A stretch of 48,687 nucleotides of DNA from Eubacteriales bacterium (GCA_045657245.1 JAZOSQ010000012.1:1-48687); one strand, 5' to 3'; counted from the first letter of the stretch, positions 8,985 through 48,105 are shown. Notes: generated by a model not told the origin, from the sequence alone. Numbers and translations: made by a program.

Positions 8985-9011
8985 TATCATATAAATTTTA
9001 GGAGAAAAACA

Positions 9012-10418: not shown

Positions 10419-10419
10419 T

Positions 10420-23216: not shown

Positions 23217-24293
23217 TCATCCGAACGGATAACGGTCGGGTGTGAAGGGCGTATCCTCACAAGTCATCGCATCGCGAGACAACGGATATGCATCCTCGTA
23301 CAAGCAGAAGCCAACACCATAGTCGTCTTGACGATTTCGTGTGATAAGCTCTTCCCGCTTTGCCACGGTCGTTTCGCCAATCAAATATAAATATTGAATT
23401 TCCGCCCATTTTGCCATGCCTTCATAAATCAGCAAACGTTTGCTCTTGGGACATTTTTTAAGGTTTTTATTGTTGTCCCAATGAGTATATTGCCAAATGT
23501 GCGTTAATTCATGAGCGAAGGTTGCAATCAACGAAATTCGAGGAGCGCCATTTTCTAAAATGATGCTATATTTCTTTTTCTTGTTAATGGCAACACCCAG
23601 AATCAACATGCTTTGGCTATCGGCTGTTCCTAAAGGCATTCCTAAACGTTTTTTAAGTTTTCTTTCTTCTGTAACTTCAATAGAAACAGGCACATCGATT
23701 GTTGCAGCAAAGAAGTTTTCCATGTTCAAAGCAACTCTTTGACAAATTTCTTCCGCTTCGGATTTGGTTTTCACGATAGAGCTACTGCAAGTCGTGCAGC
23801 GCATACGACCATCAGGCAAACGATAAAATTCGACACCTGCGATTTCTGCTCCGCAATAAGAACAATACATTTGATTGTTTTTGCTGCTGTCTGACTCGCG
23901 AAAAACTTCAGAATCATGTTTTCCTTCTCTAGCTTGGCGGAGTTCTCCTCCATCAAAGCCCAAAAGATTCAGAAAGTTTTTGGTTTCTTGCAAATCTAAA
24001 GGCGTGCTGCGTTTTCCTTCGCGATATTTAAGATAATATCTTTCGTGGTAAGGAACCTCAGCTTTGGTATTAGATTCAGCAACATCAACCTGCGAAGTTG
24101 TTTCTGCAGTTTCGGTTTCTTCAACAGAATCGAATTCGGTAGCATCAACCTGCGAAGTGATTTCTGCAGCTTCGGTTTCTTCAACAGAATCGGATTCGGT
24201 ATCATCAACCTGCGAAGTGATTTCTGCAGTTTCAGATTCTTCAACAGGAGCATCCTGTTGGAGTTCTTCGGATATAGAGTTGAAATCACTCAT
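23217..24293 (-). CDS. DA1-like zinc metallopeptidase with a CxxC..CxxC Zn-finger and acidic repeat N-terminus
   Basis: YCSYCG...GRMRCTTC; FAHELTHIWQ (HExxH); YEGMAKW; DDYGVGF; RBS GAGGTG; ATG overlaps the upstream stop. Confidence 0.75.
   Translation of the reverse strand: MSDFNSISEELQQDAPVEESETAEITSQVDDTESDSVEETEAAEITSQVDATEFDSVEETETAETTSQVDVAESNTKAEVPYHERYYLKYREGKRSTPLDLQETKNFLNLLGFDGGELRQAREGKHDSEVFRESDSSKNNQMYCSYCGAEIAGVEFYRLPDGRMRCTTCSSSIVKTKSEAEEICQRVALNMENFFAATIDVPVSIEVTEERKLKKRLGMPLGTADSQSMLILGVAINKKKKYSIILENGAPRISLIATFAHELTHIWQYTHWDNNKNLKKCPKSKRLLIYEGMAKWAEIQYLYLIGETTVAKREELITRNRQDDYGVGFCLYEDAYPLSRDAMTCEDTPFTPDRYPFG
24074..24247. repeat. 60-bp tandem repeat, ~3 copies (VEETEAAEITSQVDDTESDS-like)
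   Basis: CATCAACCTGCGAAGT...TTCTTCAACAG recurs with a period of 60 nt. Confidence 0.9.
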
Positions 24294-33000: not shown

Positions 33001-33754
33001 TAGATACGTTTACATGGAGGTTGGAGAACTGCTTCAAGTCTTCGTCCAAATCGATAAAGCCCGAGCCCTTCATCATGAATGCGTTCAATTCTTTGATTGT
33101 AGCATAAGCATTGCGTGCTTGGCTATCACGTTCGGTCTGAGAATCAATTACGCTGTCCAAAGTTTCAGGCAACAAAATGAGAGAACGGACAATCAAGCTT
33201 GTGTTAGGATATTTTGCCTTTACATAGTCGCGAATAAACATACTTAAAGGGAGAATAATACCGGAACCGGTACCACCCGATGCAGTAGAAGCAATAACAA
33301 CACGCATTGCCTGCTTCATGTCTTTACCGGTCTTGCGGAAAAGATCATCGATGGAGTCATATAAAGGACGAATCTTACCGGTTTTGATGGTAGCGTTCAA
33401 TGCCAATCTGGAAATTGCACGAACCTGACCAGCACCCTCGGAAACGGTCTTATCATACATAACTGCATTTTTAGGGAACCATTTCTTACGAGCTTCTTCG
33501 TCGTAATCCAAATAACTGCCTACGGTTTGAGTATTGGATGTTTGCACCCAATAAATTTTAGATTTGCCGTTAGCAACATCGGAGAGGTCGTTTACGTTGG
33601 TGTCCAAGCAAAGGAAGTTTATGTTTTCCTTTTCTTCGGGAGCACACAAATCCGCAACTTTTTTCACGATTTTACAACCGGTACCACCTACACCGACGAA
33701 CAATGTAGGAGCTGCAACTTCATTGGGCTTTAATTTTTCTCTTTTGAATTCCAT
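30032..33754 (-). CDS. large tubulin/FtsZ-like GTPase (Tubulin_2-type N-domain plus long helical C-terminus)
   Basis: FVGVGGTGCKIV, CLDTN, EGAGQVR, ASTASGGTGSG (tubulin signature), ILLP, ARNAYATIKEL; RBS GGAG. Confidence 0.85.
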   Translation of the reverse strand: MEFKREKLKPNEVAAPTLFVGVGGTGCKIVKKVADLCAPEEKENINFLCLDTNVNDLSDVANGKSKIYWVQTSNTQTVGSYLDYDEEARKKWFPKNAVMYDKTVSEGAGQVRAISRLALNATIKTGKIRPLYDSIDDLFRKTGKDMKQAMRVVIASTASGGTGSGIILPLSMFIRDYVKAKYPNTSLIVRSLILLPETLDSVIDSQTERDSQARNAYATIKELNAFMMKGSGFIDLDEDLKQFSNLHVNVSIAGSDNQKALSLLPMDFCFLMDGQDAEDSTMISKDQYVEQAAQALYEQNIGPMQKQAFSVEDNIIKEMTKPGNYGRNRFGGIGAGVIRYPYEKIVDYVSYDLAIDSIGGEGDATKWTKYDNAVRSYRAEQKKRGVPMSTWDSYGKVFCDTMVNAKDPFSKDLINTYELEELDARIKRFKTSFENQAYFTVLQDKRFGSCYDAAKQFESNTSFGESENKIADAVNALSQYRDIVEAQSKDGSPLSEGIVSRWVEAQFTNEQPTAGIKDTYCIESLMRNAQGELFHPCAARYVLYRLLDNFTEEVKSEAHLRAKENIDNYKDKEYEFKFVKEKVFGVEALGELEKENVGLFDKFKGYSALNDEANNDIPGYFAALEEYCKAVAVHAAYVKAYEYIKAFIEQFETFFNTFVYKVKDLSRKKIDLVDELRYKKGDSFMNICATKDLLEELSTFSLQKAQKETTMLNSDINGSIFDAVKKNAIFKMELDNTGGGYIEEDRRVNIFDDILMGYFKNSVYEKCDDIDRDIIGAIELEQRLKERIRLRNENNGDTQVFEQVTIADAERHIKEVIAMGARIAAPSVQRATNEEPREIKVCAYNKCLLDNRRFNVKDLMPKGDAVDTVSKYEIRFYNALYNLTPDKLKKFAAPFETETGKKNAGTYHKAYTDYSRLIGPDSTKNAAISTHIDKAWDSIKSMPELDFNYQDQVIRKVHKAFVYGLIHNAIQQRSLSAVANGKKVFSYRDSNNRDVELTVPNGTLCDEFYEVLDALYVNSKVVEDINLIKSRKRAMSEAKNCNYEHTEFFKDMSTFNLLHMLPDCDEAKAHDNCDGTQNSLDALRDKIRENKVNRIKNDKSWNPAEREDDGKLYVENATSLFAIPLMYYCTSPNSARYISEITAMVEAVIDVFREEYCQWEKEEDAKFVLCTRLTDELNLLKRNYQLYVDKLRAPAAHENLVIDIIQRKIRDVILSAPEPEDYEALLDKVAKEFKDSETGK

Positions 33755-33771: not shown

Positions 33772-36327
33772 TTATTTCTTTTTAAAATTCAATCTTGTGT
33801 TTACGTTAAAGGTTTTCTTTACACCGGCGGAAGTAATTGTGCCGGAATAAACAACAGGAACACCGTGTTTAAGATTAAGCGGAGCTTTGGACACGGGTTT
33901 GCGCTCTAACACATTTTTATCGTTAAGTACATATCTTGCGCTAGCGATAGTGGCGCTTTCGATGTTGGCGTTGCCGATTTTTTTAACCACACCGGGATTT
34001 ACAACTTCTGCATAGCGTTTTGTCTGTTTTTTATACAAATAACTTTCTTTACCGGGCTTTGCGGGGAAGGCGAGACCAATCTTGTTGCCGCCATATTTAA
34101 CAACGACGTCCGAAGCAGAACCGCTGAAATTACAGAATTTTGTAACATCTTCGCCATCGATAAGCACTCTGCTGTCTCTCTTGGAAATATGAGCATGTTT
34201 AGGCATAACTCTAATATGCAAAATTATCCAAATGATGATTGCCAACAACAATAGGAACAACAACGCTGCTACCCATTTAACCCAAAGCGGAAGATCGCTG
34301 AGAGTGACTGCTTGAGTCGCTTCTGCATAGGTCTTTCTTCCGATTGCATCCTCATACGATGCGGATGCGGTGATTTGATAGTCTCCCTCTTGGATTCCTT
34401 CCGTGGATAAAAACTTGATTTTATATTCGGAAGATTGCGGATTGGGAGTTAGTTTGTATTTTATACCGTTGCAATCCATCGTCAACTTGACAGAAGCGAA
34501 TTCTTCTTCAGTCAAAGGCTTTCCGTTAATGGTTAGCTTTACAATAGCTTCGGGATTTTCTTCAATTTCTTTAATGACGATATAGTCGTTGGGTATAGAT
34601 AATTCCAAGCCCAACTTCTTAAGATCAGAGTTTATCGTGTAAGTAAGATTGCTTCTTGTTTGCGAAGGGTCGCTACCTTTTTGAGTGTATTTTGCGGTTA
34701 TACCAACCTTGAATTCACCTGTCGCAGTATCTTTGGGTGAATTGGGATTCTTATGGTGCAAAGTTAATATATAGTGATCGTCTTTAAGTTCTTTTTTGAT
34801 CTCAACGGCACTCTTTTCAGAATTCCATGTCAACTCTGTACTTTCAAGTTCGGAACCTGTCAAGAGCTCGCCCTTATAATAAACTTTTGCAATAAACGGC
34901 GATCCGCCTTCGAGGTTAAGTAGCGAATAGTTTTCGTCGCCACCGGAAATTTCCAATCTTAAGTCTCCGGCAGGTCGTGCTGCTACTTTTATACCACCCG
35001 ACGGCCATCCAAAGTCAGAAGAGTCTTTTGAAATGGTGTACCCACTCAAATAAGTTACGGTCAAATTAGCATCGAAGGAATCTCCCATGTTTAAGGTAAG
35101 ACTAACTTCTCCGCTGGAGCCTTTTTGACTGATAGGGTATTCTTTACCATTAATGCAATAGCTTCCTTGATATACCGGTTCGCCGAGCAGGTCGGAGGAA
35201 ATCAGCTTTCCTGTTTTTGCATCCTTCATACCGAAGCTGACTTTATATTCACCTTCGTATAATGCATCGGGGTCTACCTCGTTGCCGTCCGCATCTGTAA
35301 ATACGAAATCCAAATCGGCATCGGGCTCATAGTATACTTCGACACTGCTTGCGTTGCCGGAATATTCAATCGTGTAATTTCCTGCCGCGCAATCAGTATA
35401 TGTAACCATCATGCCTTGCAACGACGTATCGGGAACGGCTTTCAGATTGCCTGCGCCCACTGTTGAATATTTTGTCTGTTGCGAACTCACCTTTTGAGAA
35501 TCGGAAATACCGTTGACTTTTAAATTTGATATGTTTTCGCCTTGTACAAAAACAATCAATTTTTTCAAAGACATATCGAAATCGATTTTTTTGCCCGAAA
35601 TTCTATTTTTAGGCAATGTATCTCGTCCGAATATTTGGTTGCACATGAGAGTTAGTGTCGATAATACGTCTTCGGTATTAACGACTTTCTTTTTCACGAA
35701 ATATTTGGATTCAGCGAGACTGGGTAGAGCAGCCTGCGAGCCGATCCCCAAATACATAATGGTTAAGTCTTCGCCGGCCTTTTTGAAACGTTTATCAAGA
35801 ACGCCTATTGTGTCTTTGCACTTCTCGTCGTTTTCAGTAAAAACGTCACCGTCGGTTAAAACAACCAAATATTTTTTGCCACCGCTTATCTTTTGCAATC
35901 CGTTTATTGCACCGTCGATACTTTCTATAGGTGTAAGACCGGTTTCAATTGTGAAGATTTCGCGAATCTGCGATGCTTGAGAGGGGCTCTTGATTTCAAG
36001 AGGAGATTCCATCGAGTATATCTTGTCACCAGATTTACCAAGCTTAATCGGGTGCATTGGATATATTTGCAATGTATCGCCATCGTTAAGCATGGATGCG
36101 AAAACTTCCATAGCATACGTGGCTCTGCACCATTCCAAGACTGGCTTTTTATCCAGCATGTACATCGAACCGGAGTTATCGAAAACGATTGCGATGTTAC
36201 GCGATTCGGTAGGCTTGCTTGCTGCACTGACGTTGCAAGGAACGATCGGCAACATAAGCAACAAAAATGCCATCAAGACAGAACAAATCCACCTTATTTT
36301 GTTGTGTTTCATCGTCATGACCACCAT
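33772..36327 (-). CDS. VWA-domain surface protein with signal peptide and a single C-proximal TM; start may be 36310
   Basis: Signal peptide ...VPCNVSAA; MIDAS residues IVFDNSGSM, TP, VLTDG; beta-rich stalk; TM WVKWVAALLFLLLLAIIIWIIL; basic cytoplasmic tail. Confidence 0.85.
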   Translation of the reverse strand: MVVMTMKHNKIRWICSVLMAFLLLMLPIVPCNVSAASKPTESRNIAIVFDNSGSMYMLDKKPVLEWCRATYAMEVFASMLNDGDTLQIYPMHPIKLGKSGDKIYSMESPLEIKSPSQASQIREIFTIETGLTPIESIDGAINGLQKISGGKKYLVVLTDGDVFTENDEKCKDTIGVLDKRFKKAGEDLTIMYLGIGSQAALPSLAESKYFVKKKVVNTEDVLSTLTLMCNQIFGRDTLPKNRISGKKIDFDMSLKKLIVFVQGENISNLKVNGISDSQKVSSQQTKYSTVGAGNLKAVPDTSLQGMMVTYTDCAAGNYTIEYSGNASSVEVYYEPDADLDFVFTDADGNEVDPDALYEGEYKVSFGMKDAKTGKLISSDLLGEPVYQGSYCINGKEYPISQKGSSGEVSLTLNMGDSFDANLTVTYLSGYTISKDSSDFGWPSGGIKVAARPAGDLRLEISGGDENYSLLNLEGGSPFIAKVYYKGELLTGSELESTELTWNSEKSAVEIKKELKDDHYILTLHHKNPNSPKDTATGEFKVGITAKYTQKGSDPSQTRSNLTYTINSDLKKLGLELSIPNDYIVIKEIEENPEAIVKLTINGKPLTEEEFASVKLTMDCNGIKYKLTPNPQSSEYKIKFLSTEGIQEGDYQITASASYEDAIGRKTYAEATQAVTLSDLPLWVKWVAALLFLLLLAIIIWIILHIRVMPKHAHISKRDSRVLIDGEDVTKFCNFSGSASDVVVKYGGNKIGLAFPAKPGKESYLYKKQTKRYAEVVNPGVVKKIGNANIESATIASARYVLNDKNVLERKPVSKAPLNLKHGVPVVYSGTITSAGVKKTFNVNTRLNFKKK

Positions 36328-36712: not shown

Positions 36713-38752
36713 TTAATCTAATTTCAACACGACCTTTTCCGATTCCATAATGACCTTGTTTTCATCATACAAATCAGTAATGCGGAATATTACTTCCATT
36801 TGCTTTGGTCCATCAGGATCGTCTGTGCTCGTATCGTTTGAAACCTCAAGTAGCGAACATTGACCTTTGCCGGCAACGCCGGAGCCCATATTACGTTCAT
36901 ATGACGTATTTTCGTTCGGTTCGATAATCGCAGAAACTTTTATGTCATGTTCAGTTTCGTTAAATACAGTAAACTTCCATGAAGATTCGCCGGGGAAGTT
37001 TTCGATGCGAATACCGTTTTTCTCCCAAACGGTAATGCCTTTTTGCACAGGATTTGCTGTTCCGTGGGTGTCGAGTTTCACATCGAACCAGTAATAATCA
37101 TATGTATACGAAGCCCAATTGTTATTTTTTCGTACACCAAGCAAAATCTTCAAGGTTTCGATTGACGGATTTGTTGCGGGTTCCAAACGATATTTCGAAA
37201 TATCGCTGATCAGATAACTATAACAACCGCCCGGCACTGTCACAGGGCTATTCATTTTTGTACATACATTGTTTAGCGTTGCTGCAGAAATCGCTACGAC
37301 CTGCTCTTGTTGAGTTAAATTTTCAACTTTATATGTCATGTATAAGGAACTGTCATCTGAATGCAACGAACCTGCACAAAGCAAGGTAAGACGTATTTTT
37401 TCATTTTCGAAAACAACTTGTTCTTTTGCAACAGCATCAAACCCTGGAGTTGTTAAATTGAAATAACCGATATTTGTGGTTCCGAGTGGCCAAGCATCCG
37501 TCATATCAACCGACACCAAAAGATCGGGAAACAAAACCGCGCCTTCTTCTTCTGCGCTTACTAAAAAGCGAATTTGTTTCAGGTCTTTCAATTCAGGCAA
37601 ACCATCATCGAAATCAAACGTCCCTACATAGTTGAGCTCACTGACAAATTTACCGGGTTCAACGGTCAAATAACAAAATTTACTATCGTACAAATTGTCG
37701 TTGATTAAAAGATCAACTGTCTTAACTTGGACATTATGGTTGCGATTGTTTTTCACTTTCAGTGCATAAAATGACTCGCCGTTCCAACTTTTTTCAACGG
37801 ATATATAAACTTCGACACCGTTTTTCTCGAATAGAAGTTGTTCGCGCTCGCCTTTTTCCCATTTGGCGGTTATATCAGGTTCTTCTTTGAGTGCAAAGGT
37901 TGATTCATTTTCGGTGGATGCGCTATTGCTAGTGTCCTTATTCGAATCGTTGTTGGGATTTTCTCCATATGACACCCAATCCGTAACATATTTATCACCA
38001 TTAACATCGGTGATCTCATATATGACGTAATACTCGCCATCTTCAAGCGGAACATATTCCATCTTTATATCTTCGGAAAGAGTATAACTGTATATTAGAA
38101 TATTCGGCGTGGTTCTCCACTCGCTAATGGGAAGCGATTTGTCTTCGTTTGATAGTTCGTAAATGGTGCCTGCTGTTAAAGAGACATTTGCATAATTTGA
38201 AAAATCGGGCAGATTATCATATTTTCCCGAAAACAGTTCTTCGTCGGTTCCTTCGTCTTTCGGTCTCATAGCTTTCAATACGGGTTCGTTAGAAGTGCCA
38301 TCAACCTCGATTAAATATCGATATCCAACATAGCCGGAACTATCATCGTTTGTGACGTTACTTTGCAAAACAGAACTGCCGACAAAACTTAGCGGTTTGC
38401 CTTCTACAACATTCATATCCGACGGAGGATAGCTACTTTCTTCTTTGCCGTCCGATATTTTAATTCCCATACCATTGAATTCAGTGTTCAACACACCGTT
38501 GGAAAAAGTAACAGCACAGTTGCGATATTGTATCCTGTAAAGGTTTGCACCTTCGCGCTTAATAATATGGCTGACTGCCGATTTGTACGTTTTTATTTGT
38601 TCTTCCGTCAACTTGACACAGTGTTTGTTTTCGTTTGATTCGATTTTTGATGTTTCATCAATCGAAGTTTGAGTTGATTCAGCACAAGCGCTTAAAATCA
38701 TGCAAAAGATCACCATAAGAACAATGGCAAGTTTGATTTTTTGAAATCTCAT
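36713..38752 (-). CDS. lipoprotein paralogous to the C-terminal part of the adjacent clostripain-like protein
   Basis: Lipobox LSAC; shares collinear blocks with the 1067-aa protein (EYVPLEDGEYY vs EYAPLANGEYY, among others). Confidence 0.8.
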   Translation of the reverse strand: MRFQKIKLAIVLMVIFCMILSACAESTQTSIDETSKIESNENKHCVKLTEEQIKTYKSAVSHIIKREGANLYRIQYRNCAVTFSNGVLNTEFNGMGIKISDGKEESSYPPSDMNVVEGKPLSFVGSSVLQSNVTNDDSSGYVGYRYLIEVDGTSNEPVLKAMRPKDEGTDEELFSGKYDNLPDFSNYANVSLTAGTIYELSNEDKSLPISEWRTTPNILIYSYTLSEDIKMEYVPLEDGEYYVIYEITDVNGDKYVTDWVSYGENPNNDSNKDTSNSASTENESTFALKEEPDITAKWEKGEREQLLFEKNGVEVYISVEKSWNGESFYALKVKNNRNHNVQVKTVDLLINDNLYDSKFCYLTVEPGKFVSELNYVGTFDFDDGLPELKDLKQIRFLVSAEEEGAVLFPDLLVSVDMTDAWPLGTTNIGYFNLTTPGFDAVAKEQVVFENEKIRLTLLCAGSLHSDDSSLYMTYKVENLTQQEQVVAISAATLNNVCTKMNSPVTVPGGCYSYLISDISKYRLEPATNPSIETLKILLGVRKNNNWASYTYDYYWFDVKLDTHGTANPVQKGITVWEKNGIRIENFPGESSWKFTVFNETEHDIKVSAIIEPNENTSYERNMGSGVAGKGQCSLLEVSNDTSTDDPDGPKQMEVIFRITDLYDENKVIMESEKVVLKLD

Positions 38753-38756
38753 CGTA

Positions 38757-41700
38757 TTATTCTCCCAATTCTGCGCTTAAAAGCGCTGTTTGTGATGCTG
38801 TAAACAATATCTTTGTTTCATCAAAAGTTTTAACCTGGAATCGGACATCAATTTGTTTTGAAAGCAAATCTTCGTCCAAATCGCTAAATATGGTTACAGA
38901 ACCTACGGTGCGTTGATTCGGTCCCAATCTACAGTCCAACGAAGTATAGAGACCCTTGTCGTATAGGATTCCTCCAAAGTAACTTTCCATCACTTCCAAG
39001 CAAATATCTTTGTCGGTAGTGTTTTCTATGACAATCTCCAATTCTCTTTCTTCAACACGTCCGCGAAGATATACGCGAACACCCTGTTCTTCCCACAAGG
39101 CATCACCGAGTTTGAAGGTTTGCTTCTTGCCGTGTTGTTCAAGCTTTACGGGGCACCACAAACAATCGAATTCTTCTGTAAGCCATACTGAATTTGAAGA
39201 AACAACGGCTAAAATAGACATAGAGTGGATTTCTGAAATCGTCCAGTCTTTCAACCAAAAATCACCGAAATACACATGAATATAGCATGCTTCTCCGGGC
39301 TTTAACCTATAGGGACCCTCATATGCGTAGAAATAACACCCATTTATTTCATATCCATATATTGCAAAATCGAGTGTTTTGTCTGATAAATTCTCCGCAA
39401 AAATATAGATAGGGTTTGAATCTTCGCTTTTTTCCGAGTATTTGCCAATACCCATTAAAGTCAATCTAACGTCTTCTGTTTCATAAATGACTTGTTTTTG
39501 GCAAAGTGCGCCTTTATAGGGAACATTAAAAGCAACTTTGTTTTTATTATTTTGGAGAAAATCAATTTTGGGCGCAAATGACATATCTGTCTTTGAAATT
39601 TGAGTTGGCCAAATAATCGCGCCGGAACGGTTATTTTCTATTTCTAATTGAATCTGCAATGTCGATAGGTTTTCTATGGCTTCGGTACACTCTACTATTC
39701 CAAAGTCAATGTGCTTATACATAAAGTCATAAGGGTTGACGTCAAAATTGACAGAGCTTGCGATAAGATTTCCGTTCACCGAAAATGTAGCGCTAACATC
39801 TATTTCAAAATCGTTTGCGTTTTCAACCTCTATAAAATATCTGGTGCCTTCACGTTGGGTATCTTTAACACACAAATATGCTTTTACTCCGTTTTCGCTT
39901 TTAAGCAAAACACGATCTTCGCCATCCTCCCAAACGGATTCGGTGACGGTTAAAGGAGCTTCTTCTTTGGTGCCGTTTTCTACACTAATGGGAAGAAGTT
40001 CGCTACAATAGCTTGTCGCTTGAGAGTCCGTAATTTCGAACATTAAGTAATATTCCCCATTCGCAAGAGGCGCGTATTCGAAGGAATATTCTCGAGCAAG
40101 CGATATAAAATTATATGTGATGTGACCGGTGCTATACCATTGGTCTAACGGCTTAATAACACCGTTATCGTAACGGGTTATATAGCGCGACTGTGCATAA
40201 ACAAACTCGATGGAACCATATTGCGACAAATCCGCTTCTGCAATGCGTCCGCTTTGGACAAGGTCTTCTGTTGAAGACTCAAGATACGGAACGGTTCCCG
40301 ACATTTCAATTTTTTTGGTTTCGCTGTTGAATGTCAAAAGATATCGCCAATAACATATATCGTCCGGCAAATCCTCATCAGCTATATCTGAAGGTTTATA
40401 TCTTATATTGGAAAGCACAAACATACCGCTATAACGATATAATCTGTCTATTTGATCGACAACTGTTAACGGAGGGAGAAATGGTTCTTTTCCTTCAGCA
40501 TATACGTAAATTGCCATTCCGTCATAGTCGGTTTTTAAAACATTATTTTCAAAAACAACGTCCTTGCTACAAAAAACCGGACGATATATATCACCGTTTT
40601 CGCGTTTCATAATGTAATATATTGCCGAACTGTAAGATTTCGCTTGTTCGTCATTTAGCGTGATGCTATAAGTAGTGTCGTTGGTTTGCTCGGGGATCAG
40701 TGATTCTGCGACTTTATCCAATTTATCGTTTTTAAGCCAAGTCTGTTCGTATTTCAATAAATATTTTTGATATTCGTCGAATAGACCCAACTCCGAATAA
40801 ATACGTTTCCAATCTTTTTCATAATAGTTCTTATTAAAGAATGGATAATATAACGACATACCACAACAAGAATTTAGACTTGTTGCGTTTACCATCACCA
40901 TACGGTCAATGACATTCAATAAATTATCCACTAATTGAGGATATTGAGGAGATAATTGCATTGCCATATCTTTAAGGTCGACTAAATCATATTCCGAACC
41001 GGTCGTTGCTCGCCCCAAAGCACGTGTTTCTGCTCGGTTCTTGGCGAGCAAATCATAGTAGTGCTCAACCTCACCTGAAGCGACGGAAAACAAATCGTTA
41101 ATAGCCGTTTCTAATTCGGCGGCATGCGAAAGATCAACAACCGACAATGTTACGTCGTAATTATCATATTTGCGTTTAGTATAGTAGGAATCACACTCTG
41201 TCATATAGCCGTCGGTGATTGATTTCAAGAGCGTGGGTGTTTCAATCTTACCTAATTGAGATAAAAAGCTATAATTCCACCCGAAAGCGGGTTCTATTTC
41301 TTGCGATGCAATCAGATACTTTGCGTGGTCTGCCATAATACAGTTCAGCTCGGCAGAAGCCATTAAACATGCGTCAAAACCAACCCAAGCAAGTTTATTG
41401 TTATCTGAAAAAGAAGAGTTTTTTAACGCTGTTTTTATTTCTGAAAGTAATAGAGCATCATTCTCGTGAACAATATCTTTACCATATCCCATTACCGGAC
41501 CATTGCCGTGATCCCATAAAATCAGCGCAAACTCATCGTTTTGGTAATTTTTCCAACAAAAATTCAAAAATGCGGTTAATTGTTCTGCATCGCCCATAGA
41601 CACATTTTCTTGTGTTTCCACAGACACGAATCCTTGTTTCTGTAACGAAAGTATATTTATGTGTTCCGAACTCAGCTGTTCATTATGCCAATAAGGCGTT

Positions 41701-41960
41701 CCTCCGGCACAAACAACAACTTTGTTCCGTTCTAAATCGATTCCGCTTTCTTCGATTTCTCGAAGGTCGGCACTGGCTGCGCCTGCCTTGGGTTCCAAAT
41801 CTGAACCAACCATATATATCATGAGAGTTGTATTAGCAGGCGATTGACCAAGGATGATCGATGATTCATTCTGCTCTTGGGAATCTGTATTTGTATTACA
41901 ACCAACGAGCATAGAAAATAATATCGCAAACACAACACAAATGGAGAAGACTTTTTTCAC
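38757..41960 (-). CDS. clostripain-related (peptidase C11) cysteine protease lipoprotein
   Basis: Lipobox LVGC; TLMIYMVGSDLE, LILWDHGNG (catalytic His), GFDACLMA (catalytic Cys), ASQEIEP..GWNY; GTG start. Confidence 0.88.
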   Translation of the reverse strand: MKKVFSICVVFAILFSMLVGCNTNTDSQEQNESSIILGQSPANTTLMIYMVGSDLEPKAGAASADLREIEESGIDLERNKVVVCAGGTPYWHNEQLSSEHINILSLQKQGFVSVETQENVSMGDAEQLTAFLNFCWKNYQNDEFALILWDHGNGPVMGYGKDIVHENDALLLSEIKTALKNSSFSDNNKLAWVGFDACLMASAELNCIMADHAKYLIASQEIEPAFGWNYSFLSQLGKIETPTLLKSITDGYMTECDSYYTKRKYDNYDVTLSVVDLSHAAELETAINDLFSVASGEVEHYYDLLAKNRAETRALGRATTGSEYDLVDLKDMAMQLSPQYPQLVDNLLNVIDRMVMVNATSLNSCCGMSLYYPFFNKNYYEKDWKRIYSELGLFDEYQKYLLKYEQTWLKNDKLDKVAESLIPEQTNDTTYSITLNDEQAKSYSSAIYYIMKRENGDIYRPVFCSKDVVFENNVLKTDYDGMAIYVYAEGKEPFLPPLTVVDQIDRLYRYSGMFVLSNIRYKPSDIADEDLPDDICYWRYLLTFNSETKKIEMSGTVPYLESSTEDLVQSGRIAEADLSQYGSIEFVYAQSRYITRYDNGVIKPLDQWYSTGHITYNFISLAREYSFEYAPLANGEYYLMFEITDSQATSYCSELLPISVENGTKEEAPLTVTESVWEDGEDRVLLKSENGVKAYLCVKDTQREGTRYFIEVENANDFEIDVSATFSVNGNLIASSVNFDVNPYDFMYKHIDFGIVECTEAIENLSTLQIQLEIENNRSGAIIWPTQISKTDMSFAPKIDFLQNNKNKVAFNVPYKGALCQKQVIYETEDVRLTLMGIGKYSEKSEDSNPIYIFAENLSDKTLDFAIYGYEINGCYFYAYEGPYRLKPGEACYIHVYFGDFWLKDWTISEIHSMSILAVVSSNSVWLTEEFDCLWCPVKLEQHGKKQTFKLGDALWEEQGVRVYLRGRVEERELEIVIENTTDKDICLEVMESYFGGILYDKGLYTSLDCRLGPNQRTVGSVTIFSDLDEDLLSKQIDVRFQVKTFDETKILFTASQTALLSAELGE

Positions 41961-42027
41961 TTATGTTTTCCTTCTTTCCTTATCGTTACAAAATTACTCG
42001 TTACATGAGGGTTCTAAATACATTATC

Positions 42028-42056
42028 ATAATATCACAAAGATAGGTCTGGTTCAA
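42028..42056 (-). promoter_or_regulatory. sigma-A promoter of the clostripain-like gene pair
   Basis: Minus strand TTGAAC, 17 bp spacer, TATTAT, with a TGn extension. Confidence 0.55.
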
Positions 42057-42332
42057 GTTTTTTTGTATAATCTAGTGTAAAACCGTCGTTGCCATGACTT
42101 TTCAGCTCTGTTTTTTTTGTTCGATTTAAGTATATTACATTGTTTTATATTGTCTGTAATTTGGTAAGCGTATTTGCGAAACCTTTTTCTGTATACGGGA
42201 CATTGTATTAATGTTGCAGAATCGGGGGTTGTTTCCTCGCCGAAAAGCACCAATACAAAGCGGGGTGAACTTCACCCCGCTGTTTCTATCCTATGACAGT
42301 GTTATTTATTTCCGTCTGTGGATTTGGATAAT

Positions 42333-42375
42333 AAAAACTCCTTGTCTTGCGGATTACTGCAAAGCAAGGAGTTTT
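42333..42375 (-). terminator. intrinsic terminator of the RyR/TIR/transporter operon
   Basis: AAAAACTCCTTG...CAAGGAGTTTT stem ~50 nt beyond the stop at 42425. Confidence 0.6.
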
Positions 42376-42424
42376 ATATTTAATTATCTTCGATTATCGA
42401 GACAAGGCAAATGTCCCGTGCTTA

Positions 42425-43558
42425 TTAATGTCTTAGATATGTAACCAACAGCTGAACAATCAAGAATACGGTATTAATTCCTGTAAACATAAGCATATAT
42501 CGTTTGAATCCTTTGGGCTGGTGCTTTAAGAATTCTTTTAAGGTTATCAAGCTCGCCAATGAAGAAATAATTATACCCAAGGAGCCGACATTAACTGCTA
42601 CCAACAAGTCTGCCGAATATGCAACATCAGTAAATTTTGAAAGGAATATAGCCGTAGGAACATTACTGATAAATTGACACGAAACAATACCAGCAGCAAG
42701 CACATTTTCGCCGCTTTCGCCTACAATGCTCTTAATAAAGTCGCTGATCGCCGTTATACGGGCAATATTGCCAGAGAATATAAAGAACACACAGAAAGTA
42801 GCCAGTAATGCATAGTCCACTTCTTTGAAGCGTTTTCTATCCATAATCAAGATGGTTGCAACAACAAGCCCAAGCGCAAGCCAATGATTTATCACGCGGA
42901 AAATGCAAAGTATCACAATAACAAACAACATTGTATACATTGCCAACAGTTTTTTCTTGATATCCGGCTTTTTGTCATTTACTAGGCGAAGTTCCTCATT
43001 TTTGACGAACATGCTGCAAATGAACAGCATCACAAGGATCACTGCAGCCTGAACAAACAGAGCCCACAGGAAGTCTAGCAGACCCATCTCATAGTAGGAG
43101 AACAGGTATAGGTTTTGAGGATTGCCGTAGGGAGTGATCATACCGCCCATATTTGCGGCAATGGTCATCATAATAAAGGTAAATGCCAAGTATTTATCGT
43201 TACCAGTAGAATGCAGAACAATATAAGCCAAGGGCAAGAAGGTAATAAGCGACATGTCGTTTGCCACGATCATATCAAAGAAATATGTACCAAACACTAG
43301 CACACGAATAACGGCTCTTCTAGTGTGGAACAAACCGATCATCTTTCTGGAGATCAGTTCAAATACCTCGGTATACTTCAGACCCGCTACAACGGATAGC
43401 ATGCAAAACAAAGCAATTAGGGTCTTTTCCTCAAAGTAGCCCAGATATTTCGCATCCGGTGGAACGAAGAAACAAGTAACAATCGCTGCGACAATTGCAA
43501 TGGACAGTACTACTTCCTTTTTTGCAAAAGCCCAGATTTTGCCAAAAAACGCTTTCAT
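42425..43558 (-). CDS. ArsB/NhaD/SLC13 (IT superfamily) anion/ion transporter
   Basis: About 11 TM; ANDMSLITFLP, AANMGGMITPYGNPQNLYL, VDYALLATF, SQ-like ISNVPTAIFL, ISSLASLI. Start set at ATG 43558 using the GGAGGA RBS. Confidence 0.88.
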   Translation of the reverse strand: MKAFFGKIWAFAKKEVVLSIAIVAAIVTCFFVPPDAKYLGYFEEKTLIALFCMLSVVAGLKYTEVFELISRKMIGLFHTRRAVIRVLVFGTYFFDMIVANDMSLITFLPLAYIVLHSTGNDKYLAFTFIMMTIAANMGGMITPYGNPQNLYLFSYYEMGLLDFLWALFVQAAVILVMLFICSMFVKNEELRLVNDKKPDIKKKLLAMYTMLFVIVILCIFRVINHWLALGLVVATILIMDRKRFKEVDYALLATFCVFFIFSGNIARITAISDFIKSIVGESGENVLAAGIVSCQFISNVPTAIFLSKFTDVAYSADLLVAVNVGSLGIIISSLASLITLKEFLKHQPKGFKRYMLMFTGINTVFLIVQLLVTYLRH

Positions 43559-43576
43559 GATTTCCTCCACCCAGAA

Positions 43577-45274
43577 TTAGTCATCTCGCTTATCGGAAAT
43601 GCGAGCTTCCTTAATACCGTTGCGATGGCAATATGCCTGGGCTATAGAGCCCTCGTTACAGTAAACAACCACCTTTTCCTCGCAACCGTCGAAGACGCCC
43701 CATCCCAAATCAGTTACGGAGTCGGGGATAATAACGGTGTCCAAGCTGACACAGCCACGGAATGCGCAGTCATCTATCTTGGTTACGGAATCGGGAATTT
43801 CAATCTCATCCAGCAGAACACAGTTGCAGAAAGCACCTTCACCGATTTCATTAACGCTATCCGGCATCGTGATACGGTTCAGTTTCTTACTGTCGCAAAA
43901 TGCCCAGTCGCTAATCTCGGTAACAGAATCAGGAATGTCATACTGCACCTCACGACTATTTGCAGGATATGCAATCAGTTTAGACTTGTTTTTATTAAAG
44001 AGCACATAGTCACTGCCATCACGTTTGTTGGGTTCAGACTTATAGTGCTTATTCTTTGGATCTACACGGACGGACTTCAAGTTTTCGCAACCACGGAAGG
44101 GAGCATCGGAAATACTCACCACAGAGGCAGGAATGGACACGGTTGTCAAAGCCTTACAGTTCTTAAATGCACTCTTGCCAATCTTACGGAGGCCGAGCGG
44201 TAGCGACACATCAACCATATTGACACAGCCATTAAATACCAAGTCATCAATCTTAGTAACATTAGCAGGGATCACAACCTTTTCCAAACCAACACAGTCG
44301 GAAAAAGCATTTTCACCGATAACGGTCAATGCAGATGGTAGATTAATCTCATTTAGACTCTTACAGGAGTTGAACACGCCGCCATACAGCTCGGACATAC
44401 CGTCAGGAAGCTGGACCCGAGACAGATTAGCACAGTTTTCGAAGGCACGTTCGCCAATCTTGATGGCATCATTTGTAACCACCAATTCCGTCATGCTAAC
44501 ACAGTCACGGAATGCGCTTTCGCCGATGCGAGACACCTTGCCAGGAATAAACATAGATTGTAGCTTATTACAACCACGGAAAGCCTCTTCTTCAATTTCT
44601 TCCAGGCCGTCGGGCAGATTGATGATTGTCAACTGCTTTCTGTCTTTGAAAGCACCTGCGCAAACAATACGAACACTCTCGTCCACATCGATGGACTTGC
44701 CATTATCTTCACAGCGTTCCAGCTTACTAGCAGTCTCATCCAGAGTCAAACGATCCATGGTCTCTTCCGGCAAATCCTCTTTCATAGACTTCAAGAGCTT
44801 GTTCATATTATCATAGGTGCTGTGGTGGGTATTGTTGAGCAAAATCGAAAAAGCAGGGGGAACCGCGTCTTCACCTTCTAAGAAGATGGGGAACAATTTT
44901 TTTCCGTACTCCTTGGCAGTGAGGATCTCCATACCGCAGAAGGGAGAGTTCATAGAAGACTTGGACACGAACAACAACACACCTGAGCTTTTCTTAATGC
45001 GCTCACGAAGTTCTTCACGGAAATCATTGCCCACTTCGCAGGACTCATCATACCAGATACGATACTTCATATCGTGCAAGGCATCAAGAACCTTATATAC
45101 TTTATCACAATCTCGGTGGGAGTAGCTCACAAACAAATACTCTTCGTCACCCTTATAGGCCTCGAACTTTGTTGTAGCATCAATATAGTTTTCAATCATT
45201 GCCTTGGCCTGAACCTTAGTCAGAGCCTGGGTCATAGTCTTTCCTTCGATCTGGAGTATTTTTTCATCAGACAT
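43577..45274 (-). CDS. TIR domain plus BspA/TpLRR-type leucine-rich repeat protein, no signal peptide
   Basis: TIR box FVSYSHRD, IWYDE, LLFVSKSSMNSPFCGMEI (putative catalytic Glu), FPIFL; then about 14 repeats of IP..V..I...AF..C..L. Confidence 0.88.
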   Translation of the reverse strand: MSDEKILQIEGKTMTQALTKVQAKAMIENYIDATTKFEAYKGDEEYLFVSYSHRDCDKVYKVLDALHDMKYRIWYDESCEVGNDFREELRERIKKSSGVLLFVSKSSMNSPFCGMEILTAKEYGKKLFPIFLEGEDAVPPAFSILLNNTHHSTYDNMNKLLKSMKEDLPEETMDRLTLDETASKLERCEDNGKSIDVDESVRIVCAGAFKDRKQLTIINLPDGLEEIEEEAFRGCNKLQSMFIPGKVSRIGESAFRDCVSMTELVVTNDAIKIGERAFENCANLSRVQLPDGMSELYGGVFNSCKSLNEINLPSALTVIGENAFSDCVGLEKVVIPANVTKIDDLVFNGCVNMVDVSLPLGLRKIGKSAFKNCKALTTVSIPASVVSISDAPFRGCENLKSVRVDPKNKHYKSEPNKRDGSDYVLFNKNKSKLIAYPANSREVQYDIPDSVTEISDWAFCDSKKLNRITMPDSVNEIGEGAFCNCVLLDEIEIPDSVTKIDDCAFRGCVSLDTVIIPDSVTDLGWGVFDGCEEKVVVYCNEGSIAQAYCHRNGIKEARISDKRDD

Positions 45275-45289
45275 TGTATGTTCCTCCTA

Positions 45290-47227
45290 TTATTTCAATT
45301 TGGTTATTTTATATCGTTTGCCTGCGATATTCCATTTATCGCCAAGAATATCAGGTATTCTTAAAACAAGCTCTCTATCGTATACGGTCGTGTCTTTGCC
45401 CTCTAAATCCAGAGAAAGCTCTTCGAGTTTCTCATATTCGCAAATATATGGATGCATTTTTAATATCGGGCAATTATGTCTTCCCTTGCTAATTCCACTT
45501 GCTCTATATGAATAAACCTCTTCTTTGGTAGATGGTATCCAACCTTCGGTCTCCAGAAAAGCCATCCAACGATCATGCTCCGATATTGAAAGAAGTTCCA
45601 AATATTCTTCTGTATAAAACTCATTTATATTAACAGATTCGCCCTCTGACATATCTGTATAATCCAAGCCCAACAGATTTAACTTATATCGAATATGCAA
45701 AGCATTTGCACGATTAGCTCTTTTGTTCACCTCGAAAATATTATATCGTTTTAGCGCTTCGTGCAGATCGATTTGCCCCTGTGAGAAAATTTCTTCGTAT
45801 GCCAAATGAACGTTTTTCGCCAGCTTTTCCAAATCTGAATCCACCAAGTTTTTATATGTATAAACCTCTTCGAGACTTCCAAATGGAGTCAAATCGTAGC
45901 TCATTTTTCGTTTCGGATTCGATTCTGCAGTAGCTAGGTTTTTGACTATATTGAATTTTGATGCTTCTTTTATATAGCAAAAAATCGGAGGACAGGAATC
46001 AAAACTAGGGCTTAACCGATAGAACAATCTTCTTAGGATTATTCCCCGATTCATAGTTTCATTGTCTGTTGGCTCGCTAACCATCACATACGTTGCATCA
46101 AGACAATTTTCGCTTATCGTATTTATTGCCTCGTTTTCGCTACTGTGATCATAGAAAACAATGTCATACCGTTCGGTGAATAAACCCGGAACTCTAACTT
46201 TCAGATCATCAATTTGTCTTTGTATATTTAGTCCAACTACGGAAATTTTCAGAGAAAATCCGCCAAGTTGCCCGCACCACGCTATCGTTCTTAGCGCAGT
46301 AATATTAACCTCGGATAATCCGTACAATAAAATATGGATTTTATCTTTTGCATACTTGAACAAAGGATATTTATCCAGAAGATTATACAAAAGCATTTCA
46401 TATTCGTTAACACACTGAATATCAAGCATGCCTTTGTTTGCGGAATCTATAAAGACTGAGAAATCATCATATTTTGCGAATTGGAAAATATGAATACGCT
46501 CTTGTTCCGTAGGTTTAAATTCAGAATACTTTTCTATAAGCTGAAGAGTATAACTCAATGATGAATCTTCATTTTCGGAAATGCAGAAAAAGTAGATTTC
46601 TTTCCCTTTTTTACATTTCAAATTCAATTCCGCAATGCTTTCTTCTTTGAATATAAATCCTAATGTATTATCTCGCTCGTTATTAAGCGAATCAATTGTG
46701 CTATTTGCAAAAACAACATCACACATAATTTCTTTCAAGCTTTTTGCGAGGCATAAGGATCGTTCATTCACTTCAGAAAAAATGAACAGTGGCTTTTTGC
46801 GTTTGCTCGCCAAAAATAATTGTATCGACGAAAAACATCTAAATAGTACCGTTATTGCAGTTAGCGCAAAAACAATTGGAATCGCCAAATGCAAAACACC
46901 AAGCAAAACCATATACAAGTTGGCTAAAATGGAATTGTGGATGCCCGAGCATATAATCTCGTAATATTCCATAACGTCCGCATCAATGCTTATTACTCGC
47001 AATACGTTTATTAAATTGCCAATTAAGCCAGACACGAAATCATACGCCGACAAAAATACAGGCAAGTAAACAGTATAAACAGCACAGGATAAACATAATA
47101 CAACAAAAATTACTCTTAACGAACCACTTGCTTTATCTAGATAAGCGCGTACACTAAAAGAAATCAATAAAACTGAAATTATTGCACATATTATCCAAAT
47201 CATTTCTTTCTTCCTTACCTGCGTCAA
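45290..47227 (-). CDS. membrane protein with an N-terminal TM bundle, central RCK/Rossmann-like region and C-terminal RyR-like domain; start may be 47203
   Basis: 3-4 hydrophobic helices; IHILLYGLSEVN; LAKNVHLAY, ANRANALHIRYKL, LSISEHDRWMA..ETEGW, MHPYICEYEKL and YDRELV follow the bacterial RyR pattern. Confidence 0.75.
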   Translation of the reverse strand: MTQVRKKEMIWIICAIISVLLISFSVRAYLDKASGSLRVIFVVLCLSCAVYTVYLPVFLSAYDFVSGLIGNLINVLRVISIDADVMEYYEIICSGIHNSILANLYMVLLGVLHLAIPIVFALTAITVLFRCFSSIQLFLASKRKKPLFIFSEVNERSLCLAKSLKEIMCDVVFANSTIDSLNNERDNTLGFIFKEESIAELNLKCKKGKEIYFFCISENEDSSLSYTLQLIEKYSEFKPTEQERIHIFQFAKYDDFSVFIDSANKGMLDIQCVNEYEMLLYNLLDKYPLFKYAKDKIHILLYGLSEVNITALRTIAWCGQLGGFSLKISVVGLNIQRQIDDLKVRVPGLFTERYDIVFYDHSSENEAINTISENCLDATYVMVSEPTDNETMNRGIILRRLFYRLSPSFDSCPPIFCYIKEASKFNIVKNLATAESNPKRKMSYDLTPFGSLEEVYTYKNLVDSDLEKLAKNVHLAYEEIFSQGQIDLHEALKRYNIFEVNKRANRANALHIRYKLNLLGLDYTDMSEGESVNINEFYTEEYLELLSISEHDRWMAFLETEGWIPSTKEEVYSYRASGISKGRHNCPILKMHPYICEYEKLEELSLDLEGKDTTVYDRELVLRIPDILGDKWNIAGKRYKITKLK

Positions 47228-47285
47228 TATTCGCTTTTTCTATTTCGCATTTTGACATCATCATATACAAAGTTGATATTAATTT

Positions 47286-47314
47286 ATGATATCACGCATG
47301 TAAAATATTGTCAA
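47286..47314 (-). promoter_or_regulatory. sigma-A promoter of the RyR/TIR-LRR/transporter operon
   Basis: Minus strand TTGACA, 17 bp spacer, TATCAT, with a TGn extension. Confidence 0.7.
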
Positions 47315-47492
47315 TGAATTTCTTAATTTGTTTTAATTGTTCATATACAGAGCAAGCTCTTTCTGATGATTGTGTAAACTAAGAGCCGATACCGGGTTTG
47401 CGTTTCTATAGAACTGAGATTGGTTATGAAAGAGAATTTACTTTTCAAATGAAATTCGATATAATTCGAACACTTATATGTAGAGGTGTAAA

Positions 47493-47743
47493 ATGTATAC
47501 TCCTAAAAGTAAAAATCCTAATATCACTCCGCAAATGTTACAAAACGCATTATATATGGTATCCCTGAAAGAGGGACTCGCACATACGCAAGAATTCATT
47601 ACAAAAAACATGGTTTTCGTTTAATTCTTGACGAAGTGAACAGGAAAATATTAGCCTTATCTATAAATGATCAAATTTTATTTAGTATAAATTTTGATGA
47701 TATCGATACAGCTTTTTGCGTAGAAGAGAATGAAAGCAAATAA
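47493..47743 (+). pseudogene. possible frameshifted small gene remnant
   Basis: TATAAT at 47460, RBS GAGGTG, ATG 47493 and stop 47624. An overlapping second frame (...KRIIYGIPERGTRTYARIHYKKHGFRLILDE...) runs to TAA 47743. Confidence 0.3.
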
Positions 47744-47814
47744 TTACTCAGTATGATTGCAAAGCAGGTGAATTTCACCTCGCTTACCGCTCGGCTTCAA
47801 ATCCTTGATGCAAT

Positions 47815-47863
47815 AAAACAAAAAAGCCGTGCTTTGCACGACTTCTTTGTTTTGGCGGAGAAG
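47815..47863 (-). repeat. tRNA-3'-end-like 13-mer (right copy) with adjacent terminator-like hairpin
   Basis: TTTGGCGGAGAAG at 47851-47863, preceded by the hairpin AAACAAAAAAGCCGTGC-TTT-GCACGACTTCTTTGTTT. Confidence 0.45.
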
Positions 47864-48105
47864 GTTCGTTGCCTTCGGGTTCCTACACAGGTTTTATCAT
47901 TTCTTCATCATTCTCAAGAGGTTTTTCAATTGGAAGAATCTTTTGAGAATTTTTAATTGCAAAAATTGGGCAGTTGAAAATTATTCCGTACACATCACGG
48001 ACACATCAAATTGACTTTTTGCCTTGCAATTACTGCCGTTGGACACATGGACATATAGCGCTCTAATCCATTATACATCATTCTCTAAGATGTTGATGAA
48101 ACCGA

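Follow-up and report, generated by a model that had tools for sequence, protein, structure and literature searches.

Thoeris systems have been sorted into 29 putative types, of which type X pairs a TIR protein with an ion-channel effector whose signal is unknown (main text of 10.64898/2025.12.03.692087). On the viral side, two 2026 preprints report phage RyR (ryanodine receptor) domains that bind or cleave the TIR-made cyclic ADP-riboses 2'cADPR, 3'cADPR and cADPR (PMC13232231; 10.64898/2026.06.04.730250). RyDEP contacts its ligand through His75, Trp78, His100 and Asp117, and 6 of 8 tested homologues bind signals (PMC13232231). RyR Tad binds 3'cADPR with a dissociation constant of 43 nM and also binds 2'cADPR and cADPR, using H129/W132, K147/H154 and K170/D171 (10.64898/2026.06.04.730250). 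Both preprints remark on an unexplained likeness to the nucleotide site of animal ryanodine receptors, and a direct action of cADPR on the RyR Repeat12 domain is described as unproven (PMC13232231). Among channels, CASTOR lacks the TVGYG selectivity filter, carries the acidic filter ADS(A)GNHA, in which D265 is essential, and is Ca2+-selective (PMC6697748). Here we describe an operon of three minus-strand open reading frames (ORFs), g1, g2 and g3, that fill positions 42425-47314 of a 48,687-nt stretch of DNA (the window) from a gut bacterium, Eubacteriales bacterium (GCA_045657245.1, JAZOSQ010000012.1:1-48687). g1 is a predicted channel-like membrane protein that ends in RyR repeats, g2 a TIR protein with leucine-rich repeats (LRRs) and g3 a permease. 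We consider the most likely mechanism, at evenly balanced chances, to be a Thoeris-like pathway in which an ADP-ribose-type signal made by the TIR gates the RCK-RyR channel. The receptor module appears not to have been described before in the literature searched, in which the papers listed brought up no RyR domain joined to RCK in prokaryotes; it described neither host RyR-TIR operons nor host RyR-domain effectors, with subscription journals and supplements outside its scope.

The RyR module of g1 emerged from its family and its fold. As a single sequence, g1 drew no Pfam match at E ≤0.1, no NCBIfam match, no PADLOC match and none among PDB sequences, and a whole-genome scan with PF02026 also missed it; a profile of the full-length g1 family (A1) reached RyR chains in the PDB only at E 0.062-1.4. 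When the C-terminal module alone (residues 457-637) was aligned across 30 sequences (A3), 5 of 5 PDB matches of the resulting profile were RyR chains, the best being 6uhi_A at 5.9e-8; further matches, to 3nrt, 6uag and 4n05, came at 0.002-0.003, the range in which the "putative ryanodine receptor" of Bacteroides thetaiotaomicron was found. Modelled separately, the module had a pLDDT of 92.5. In a Foldseek search with this model, the first 11 among the matches listed were RyR Repeat12 chains or a B. thetaiotaomicron/human RyR chimera, and nearly all of the matches listed were RyR structures, with a best E of only 0.011. In the VIA wide fold search, RyR chains took ranks 1-3 of 48,161: 3nrt_A (Z 6.8, root-mean-square deviation (r.m.s.d.) 3.5 Å, 86 residues aligned, 24% identity), 6uhs_A (Z 5.8) and 4erv_A (Z 4.8). 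Taken by themselves, such Z values are modest; the argument for a RyR fold rests on rank together with the sequence profile. Against a library of viral folds, the top 5 matches were phage RyR-domain proteins, at weak E of 0.14-0.47. The RyR call of the first-pass annotation, which had been made from motifs in the sequence, thus failed in a single-sequence Pfam search and stood up in the family profile and the fold. The g1 C-terminus holds as a RyR module by profile and predicted fold, though below the reach of single-sequence Pfam.

Candidate residues for a ligand site are also present. The signature motifs EHxRW, GW, K-x-HP and KD are all found in g1. Repeat 1 has NVH466-LAY469 and ALH503. 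Repeat 2 carries E542-H543-D-R545-W546, G554-W, K582-M-H584-P and K603-D604, and its residues are invariant in A3. The invariant H543, W546, K582, H584 and D604 (with K603) match the ligand motifs of the phage proteins by a motif-based mapping in which those proteins were not aligned. g1 belongs to a large superfamily, with 1447 cluster representatives at E ≤0.001. Among 51 diverse members of the g1 family, TrkA_N was detected in 8 (best 1e-9) and RyR in 4 (E ≤0.01), and the protein-atlas neighbours of g1 include clusters in which 80-83% of members carry PF02026 and 74% carry TrkA_N. As far as these sequence comparisons reach, g1 is a diverged member of a known TrkA_N plus RyR architecture.

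Linkage of RyR and TIR genes at other loci provides the strongest new evidence for coupling between the two. We read 1.5-kb flanks around 27 non-self TIR loci and around 30 PF02026 loci, TIR genes in the latter being found with a home-made TIR hidden Markov model (HMM). A g1-family or RyR gene lay directly upstream in 3 of the 27 TIR loci. PF02026 matched 34 places in 31 of 401 sampled genomes, and a TIR was present within the flanks of 7 of the 30 loci, with an eighth (in genome G055) having three TIR genes just beyond. Combined, RyR-TIR neighbours occur in 10 of the 401 genomes sampled from the order, in 8 genera. By our own arithmetic (about 28 TIR places in about 800 Mb, and about 97 kb of RyR flanks), the number of such adjacencies expected by chance is well below 0.1, and in 433 kb of other loci the TIR HMM matched only g2 orthologues and the TIR of genome G058.

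These neighbourhoods take several forms. In G383, a 619-aa g1-family protein is followed by a TIR_2-LRR_4 protein, and in G269 and G320 soluble RyR proteins (2.5e-12 and 2.3e-12) are followed by TIR_2-LRR proteins, the TIR and LRR domains being Pfam calls in all three. G058 (locus L109, G058:C62) has two g1-like genes, an AAA-AAA-M41 protein, a 94-aa RyR protein (5.5e-39) and a 110-aa TIR protein (2.8e-22), and G321 (L110, G321:C78) has a g1-like gene, a 92-aa RyR protein and then a TIR-TPR protein. The standalone RyR proteins of 92-94 aa in these two genomes score 126-133 bits with PF02026 and sit between g1-like and TIR genes; in size they are like phage sponges, and they could buffer the signal. 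In G071 (L113, G071:C1, 5799-7805, minus strand), both domains are joined in one 669-aa protein with about two hydrophobic segments, TIR_2 at residues 390-493 (8.8e-12) and RyR at 590-662 (4.2e-18). A g1-like gene also stands beside a TIR gene in G314 and G318, with TIR_2 confirmed by Pfam in G314 only. Outside the order, an annotated TIR-domain protein adjoins a g1-family protein in Butyrivibrio fibrisolvens D1 pNP243. A link between RyR domains and TIR enzymes finds support in a repeated neighbourhood, one fusion and published ligand data for phage relatives. These same observations lend independent support to the earlier proposal that a TIR-made nucleotide acts on the RyR domain of a channel-like protein.

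Reading these loci brought further details to light. About 18 of the 34 PF02026 places sit in open frames shorter than 200 aa. The soluble RyR protein of G320 (L073, G320:C286, 1582-3336) has, by eye, an N-terminal H...HD-type motif (HDVGYP), which suggests an HD phosphohydrolase effector; Pfam made no such call at E ≤0.01. Between the two g1-like genes of G058 (locus 7247-10618) lies a 1124-aa protein with two AAA domains and Peptidase_M41 and no transmembrane segment. In G055 (L114, G055:C1), the three consecutive TIR-type genes encode proteins of 516 aa (with LRR_4), 295 aa and 325 aa, and after them come a 660-aa protein with a borderline RyR score (26.7 bits, cut-off 27.4) and a 527-aa protein with weak DUF4231, a family that we take to be SLATT-related.

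The rest of g1 is predicted to be built like an RCK-gated tetrameric cation channel. An AlphaFold model based on 30 homologues (pLDDT 90.5) divides into three parts, a membrane part, a tandem of RCK domains and the RyR module (Table 1), which bears out by fold the transmembrane helices and RCK-like middle of the first-pass annotation. In VIA, the RCK pair resembled the DMI1 gating ring (7vm8: Z 17.9, r.m.s.d. 3.9 Å, 295 residues aligned), CASTOR (Z 17.0-17.1) and TrkA (6v4l_D: Z 15.7, r.m.s.d. 3.4 Å, 256 aligned), and GsuK chains aligned from residue 23-29 of the model through the membrane part (Z 15.6-15.7, r.m.s.d. 10-12 Å). Residues 1-137 contain no GYG or GFG and no TVGYG selectivity filter. 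Helix 56-71 is followed by an acidic loop, S72-I-D-A-D76, whose consensus [ST][IL]DAD is kept in 24-25 of 30 sequences, and Y97, H105 and P109 of the long inner helix are conserved. When four copies of residues 1-137 were predicted together, the score was 0.59 (runs 0.58, 0.64 and 0.59), and the best of three controls scored 0.00; this measure of model confidence may reflect memory of solved tetrameric channels. The runs agreed in at least 93% of contacts, with a partner pLDDT of at least 78; in the calibration of the method, 20 of 30 proteins solved as homo-pairs passed, as did 1 of 23 solved as single chains. The predicted contacts form a ring and join residues 53-74 of one copy to residues 73-81 and 91-109 of the next, the pore helix thus meeting the neighbour's inner helix, a packing as in tetrameric cation channels. 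A K+-selective channel was considered and rejected, as TVGYG is missing, and any cation preference of g1 would have to be argued by analogy.

g2 combines an N-terminal TIR domain with BspA-type LRRs. Pfam assigned TIR_2 (1.4e-16) and ThsB_TIR (1.5e-5; 25.7 bits, cut-off 21.2). The TIR carries the FxSYS motif and the glutamate noted at first pass: Glu116 was kept in 38 of 38 aligned TIR segments and, in a match to 7uxr_A in the PDB (0.0054), aligned with the Glu of the motif TEYEL. We take this to be the catalytic TIR position. From NCBIfam, the Thoeris-related match was to ThcB4, at E 0.03 only. A Kyte-Doolittle scan found no hydrophobic segment in g2, which argues that the protein is cytosolic despite its BspA-type repeats. 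A secreted BspA adhesin was accordingly rejected, given the lack of a signal or transmembrane segment and the TIR at the N-terminus; NCBIfam adhesin models scored far under their cut-off (119 versus 1250). Compared with BspA-type LRR surface adhesins, g2 has the same type of repeat, not the same location. It is also the slowest-evolving product of the operon, with identities of 65-82% in the LRRs and 59-75% in the TIR against 41-67% for g1 and 44-88% for g3, and more than 120 database clusters are 67-83% identical to it.

g3, annotated at first pass as an ion transporter, matched CitMHS (PF03600) at 6.3e-27 (95 bits, cut-off 31.9) over profile positions 9-310 of 336. It has about 10 hydrophobic segments, and its protein-atlas neighbours are "SLC13 family permease" clusters with CitMHS in 100%; among PDB sequences it had no match at E ≤1.

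The three genes have the layout of a single transcription unit (Table 1), and here the first-pass annotation, with its one near-consensus promoter, three co-directional genes at 15- and 18-bp spacing and one terminator, agreed with our reading throughout. The promoter matches the consensus at 11 of 12 positions, has a TG ahead of the -10 box and is the top-scoring site within 41900-48100. That region holds 23 promoter-like sites against 19.1 ± 4.6 in shuffled sequence, an ordinary count, so only the quality of the site at 47314..47286 stands out. The g1 ATG at 47203 is preceded by aggtaaggaag, and most homologues are likewise 637 aa long and begin MIWII; a TTG at 47227 was rejected as the g1 start on that account. 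Between g1 and g2, TAA and ATG enclose the 15 nt taggaggaacataca, and between g2 and g3 they enclose the 18 nt ttctgggtggaggaaatc, each with a GGAGG-type ribosome-binding site inside. A GTG at 43570 was rejected as the start of g3, the spacing to the ribosome-binding site favouring the ATG at 43558. About 50 nt past the g3 stop, a hairpin (-20.5 kcal/mol, z -7.8, equalled by 0 of 200 shuffles) is followed by UUUUUAUUAU. Another GC-rich hairpin lies at 42259-42281. In the region 45000-48000, the G+C content is 0.33-0.38 across g1 and the non-coding stretch of about 800 bp upstream of it (47315-48105), whereas the window's first 20 kb have about 0.44-0.48; the lowered G+C around g1 is compatible with a foreign origin.

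Table 1. Operon parts and neighbouring downstream genes in the window, in the order in which the minus strand is read.
Feature	Position	Strand	Length or residues	Description
Promoter	47286..47314	-		sigma-70-type; TTGACA, 17 nt, TATCAT, TG extension
g1	45290-47203	-	637 aa	membrane protein; predicted pore-like transmembrane domain, tandem RCK, tandem RyR repeats
g1, membrane part	46793..47203	-	residues 1-137	predicted helices 2-22, 29-53, 56-71 (pore-helix-like), 77-87, long inner helix 91-134
g1, RCK part	45836..46792	-	residues 138-456	two predicted Rossmann-type RCK domains in tandem, gating-ring fold
g1, RyR module	45293..45835	-	residues 457-637	two RyR repeats, predicted helical
g2	43577-45274	-	565 aa	TIR-LRR protein, probably cytosolic
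g2, TIR domain	44849..45133	-	residues 48-142	FVSYS (48-52), Glu116 in CGMEI
g2, BspA-type LRRs	43595..44692	-	residues ~195-560	LRR_5 1.9e-78 in 3 stretches
g3	42425-43558	-	377 aa from ATG	polytopic CitMHS/SLC13-type permease (ion-transporter superfamily)
Intrinsic terminator	42322..42380	-		hairpin (~42330-42380), then U-rich tract
C11 peptidase	38757-41960	-	1067 aa	just downstream, past the operon terminator
C11 peptidase paralogue	36713-38752	-	679 aa	
c6	33772-36327	-	851 aa	
c7	30032-33754	-	1240 aa	FtsZl1/Tubulin_2 protein, 3.7e-52
c4	27911-30016	-	701 aa	
c2	24286-27921, 23217-24293	-	1211 + 358 aa	split; ORFs overlap at 24286-24293

The operon recurs in related bacteria. Scanning one genome per species brought up 24 loci. 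A full-length g1 orthologue (41-67% identity) is present in 23, and the genomes are without exception metagenome-assembled ones of uncultured Oscillospiraceae, Acutalibacteraceae, Christensenella or "Clostridia" from gut or rumen. tblastn recovered the order g1-g2-g3 in 12 of the 23, and in 2 the contig ends inside g2. One more (L026, G439:C24) has the look of a copy in decay: g2 is frameshifted into 213 + 340 aa and g3 is absent, with g1 and the c6 gene still in place. Wherever g2 is intact and the DNA beyond it could be read, g3 follows (the 12 loci, the window, and genomes G268 and G435), making g3, not g1, the invariable partner of g2. g2-g3 is the tightest pair and g1 a frequent third member, not an obligatory one. 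Chance adjacency of the three genes was rejected on this synteny. The distribution of the operon is very patchy: of the order's 401 sampled genomes, 2 yielded a g2 orthologue, and a search of 36 further genomes from the genus gave none of g1. Searches with g1 gave one match in 50,697 phage records (24% identity, on a metagenomic scaffold that is unverified and shows no TIR within 6 kb) and one in 72,556 plasmids, which argues that the cassette is not typically phage- or plasmid-borne in those collections.

Just downstream of the operon in the window lies a large FtsZl1 (Tubulin_2) cluster (Table 1), whose link to g1 the first-pass annotation had missed. Membrane proteins are reported to abound in FtsZl1 operons, which have been predicted to form a membrane-remodelling system (Makarova and Koonin 2010, PMC2875224). 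The block c6-c7-c4-c2 is conserved across many genomes. Pfam and NCBIfam recognized only Peptidase_C11, Tubulin_2 and weak metallopeptidase-like matches among the cluster proteins, one of the last in the C-terminal piece of c2. Elsewhere c2 is a single ORF of 1437-1571 aa, and its split in the window is either a frameshift or a natural split. PADLOC matched no protein of the cluster, and the 132 flanking and cluster proteins yielded no named system. The genomic contexts of g1 loci differ from one locus to the next.

Our favoured reading is as follows. The LRRs of cytosolic g2 would sense a trigger and switch on the TIR as an NAD glycohydrolase or cyclase. Its product, for example 2'cADPR, 3'cADPR or cADPR, would bind the C-terminal RyR repeats of g1, a step supported by residue conservation, gene neighbourhood and the published binding data for phage RyR domains. 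From the predicted fold and predicted oligomer, g1 would be an RCK-gated tetrameric channel in which the acidic loop replaces TVGYG; once the RyR module had bound its ligand, the gating ring would shift and the pore would open. Ion flux and membrane potential would change as a result, leading to growth arrest or abortive infection, and g3 may add another membrane component that acts as a co-effector or handles the metabolites that arise.

A number of observations weigh against this pathway. Queried as a single sequence, the C-terminal 203 aa of g1 reach E 0.27 with PF02026 (12.0 bits, gathering cut-off 27.4). RyR Repeat12 domains also bind ATP and ADP, judging from PDB titles, so the ligand of g1 need not be a TIR product. 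GxGxxG is degenerate in both RCK domains (FSEVNERS and YGLSEVN against the family consensus VGxGxxG), which makes classic NAD or ATP binding by them doubtful. The linkage of the three genes was upheld. The earlier supposition that all three are needed was not borne out: g1 stands without adjacent g2-g3 in 8 of 23 loci, and g2-g3 without adjacent g1 in G268. One of the eight g1-only genomes, G435, carries g2-g3 on a separate contig, and no g2 orthologue was found in the other seven, which are metagenome-assembled with completeness not reported. The conservation of g2 is unusual for an arms-race sensor. The defence role itself is not supported. The PADLOC 2023 models, used without Thoeris types V-XI, gave no match for g1 or g3 and a weak ThsB-like one for g2 (best 2e-7), in agreement with the first-pass view that this is not a recognized named system. 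The flanks of other loci are not defence islands, PADLOC matching 5 of 125 proteins there, in each case through a generic helicase, HTH or ATPase model; the window otherwise consists of housekeeping genes, and Pfam found no integrase or transposase domain among the larger window ORFs scanned. Finally, g1 orthologues stand at either end of c6-c7(FtsZl1)-c4-c2, in two arrangements, in 15 of 21 informative loci, and in G211 this cluster is followed by a g1-family member of only 22% identity, the 20 kb read there showing no TIR. By gene order, g1 is at least as tightly linked to the FtsZl1 cluster as to g2.

This last linkage is what would be seen if g1 were a nucleotide- or ion-regulated channel of the FtsZl1 machine and g2-g3 a separate module that tends to insert beside it, an alternative we think unlikely. 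It would fit the occurrence of g2-g3 apart from g1 in G268 and G435 and the richness of FtsZl1 operons in membrane proteins, and it draws on a co-occurrence across genomes: Tubulin_2 is present in 24 of 401, and PF02026 in 9 of the 23 other Tubulin_2-positive genomes versus 22 of 377 Tubulin_2-negative ones, a contrast overstated by kinship, since relatives are not independent. However, it leaves unexplained the TIR-RyR fusion and the soluble, 92-94-aa and HD-like RyR proteins beside TIRs, where no FtsZl1 cluster occurs in the stretches read, and g1 shares its promoter and a 15-nt spacing with g2, whereas a terminator parts the operon from the cluster. A role in the FtsZl1 machine and gating by a TIR product are not mutually exclusive.

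More doubtful still is a housekeeping module for signalling or ion homeostasis, in which the LRRs would bind a conserved ligand, the TIR would tune NAD+-derived messengers, and channel and permease would set the ion or anion balance. The housekeeping genes that neighbour it on the chromosome, the missing defence-island signal and the many clusters closely identical to g2 would all suit such a module, as would the ordinary part of RCK proteins in regulating K+ or cation transport, seen among the PDB matches. Patchiness does not suit it, nor do contexts that vary by locus and a frameshifted g2 copy; moreover, to our knowledge all characterized bacterial TIR-plus-partner operons are immune systems. 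We see a slim chance, the smallest of these, that the RyR module is a signal sink, a sponge or a RyDEP-like glycosidase that guards against self-activation, the effector then being g3 or NAD+ depletion. g1 does keep the matching His and Asp, the standalone RyR proteins of G058 and G321 look more like buffers than effectors, and the gene that invariably accompanies g2 is g3. Yet the RyR module of g1 is fused to a full predicted channel and gating ring, a layout typical of a sensor on an effector, and g3 has no evident cytosolic ligand-binding domain. We retain the TIR-to-RyR pathway as the preferred reading.

A broader form of this reading is offered tentatively, with the balance leaning against it. 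Host RyR domains may be the native receptors of TIR-made cADPR signals, in operons of several kinds: membrane RCK-RyR proteins, HD-like RyR proteins, standalone RyR proteins and TIR-RyR fusions. Phage RyR sponges and glycosidases would then be captured receptors, the path from TIR to RyR cation channel a prokaryotic counterpart and possible source of the animal cADPR-RyR module, and the whole a new and varied Thoeris-like branch, maybe coupled to FtsZl1. This operon and about ten related loci supply candidates for a cellular RyR protein responding to such a signal, which the texts of both 2026 preprints lack. If this is confirmed, bacterial TIR immunity would gain a sensor domain new to it and an effector channel gated by a ligand, and the origin of phage RyR sponges would be explained. 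There would also be a tractable system in which to ask whether RyR Repeat12 is a cADPR-family receptor, a long-open question of animal Ca2+ signalling, and a bacterial TIR-LRR protein would be flagged whose arrangement otherwise recalls plant and animal receptors.

Set beside the described systems, the operon is closest in outline to Thoeris, especially type X (ThsK, Bacillus sp. BH32) and the membrane-effector types II, V and VII (10.64898/2025.12.03.692087): a Glu-bearing TIR stands beside a membrane protein with a candidate nucleotide-sensing domain, in a shared operon of patchy taxonomic distribution. Unlike in Thoeris, the TIR is fused to BspA-type LRRs, and the terms "LRR" and "leucine-rich" are absent from the main text of that source. 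The candidate sensor also differs, being RyR repeats on an RCK gating ring; in the same main text "RyR" does not occur and "ryanodine" occurs once, for animal channels. A third gene, the permease, always accompanies intact g2, and the operon is known here from sequence alone. It may overlap with type X or with one of the 29 listed effector classes, from which it is set apart here by main-text description.

With RyDEP and RyR Tad, g1 shares a PF02026-type repeat and the His/Trp, Lys/His and Lys/Asp motifs, and phage RyR proteins are its best viral fold matches. Those are small, soluble homodimers of viral origin by which the host signal is destroyed or sequestered, whereas g1 is host-encoded, has two repeats per chain and is fused to a predicted membrane pore and RCK domains. 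In this latter part g1 is laid out like GsuK, MthK, BK/Slo1, CASTOR and DMI1, each subunit having a pore domain and then two RCK domains (fold Z 15.7-17.9), and like CASTOR it has an acidic filter-like loop in place of TVGYG. It departs from the RCK channels in its extra N-terminal helix, degenerate glycine motifs, added RyR module and identity of only 8-14%. Its atlas neighbours carry the architecture of the database "RyR domain-containing protein" (TrkA_N plus RyR), from which the g1 subfamily has diverged too far for Pfam calls of either domain. By analogy, the operon also recalls the animal ryanodine receptors: a Repeat12-type nucleotide-binding module would sit on a cation channel beside a SARM1-like TIR as the source of cADPR-type molecules. 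In its pore and its architecture as a whole, g1 is unrelated to the 5000-aa animal protein, and the likeness is one of module and logic rather than of channel.

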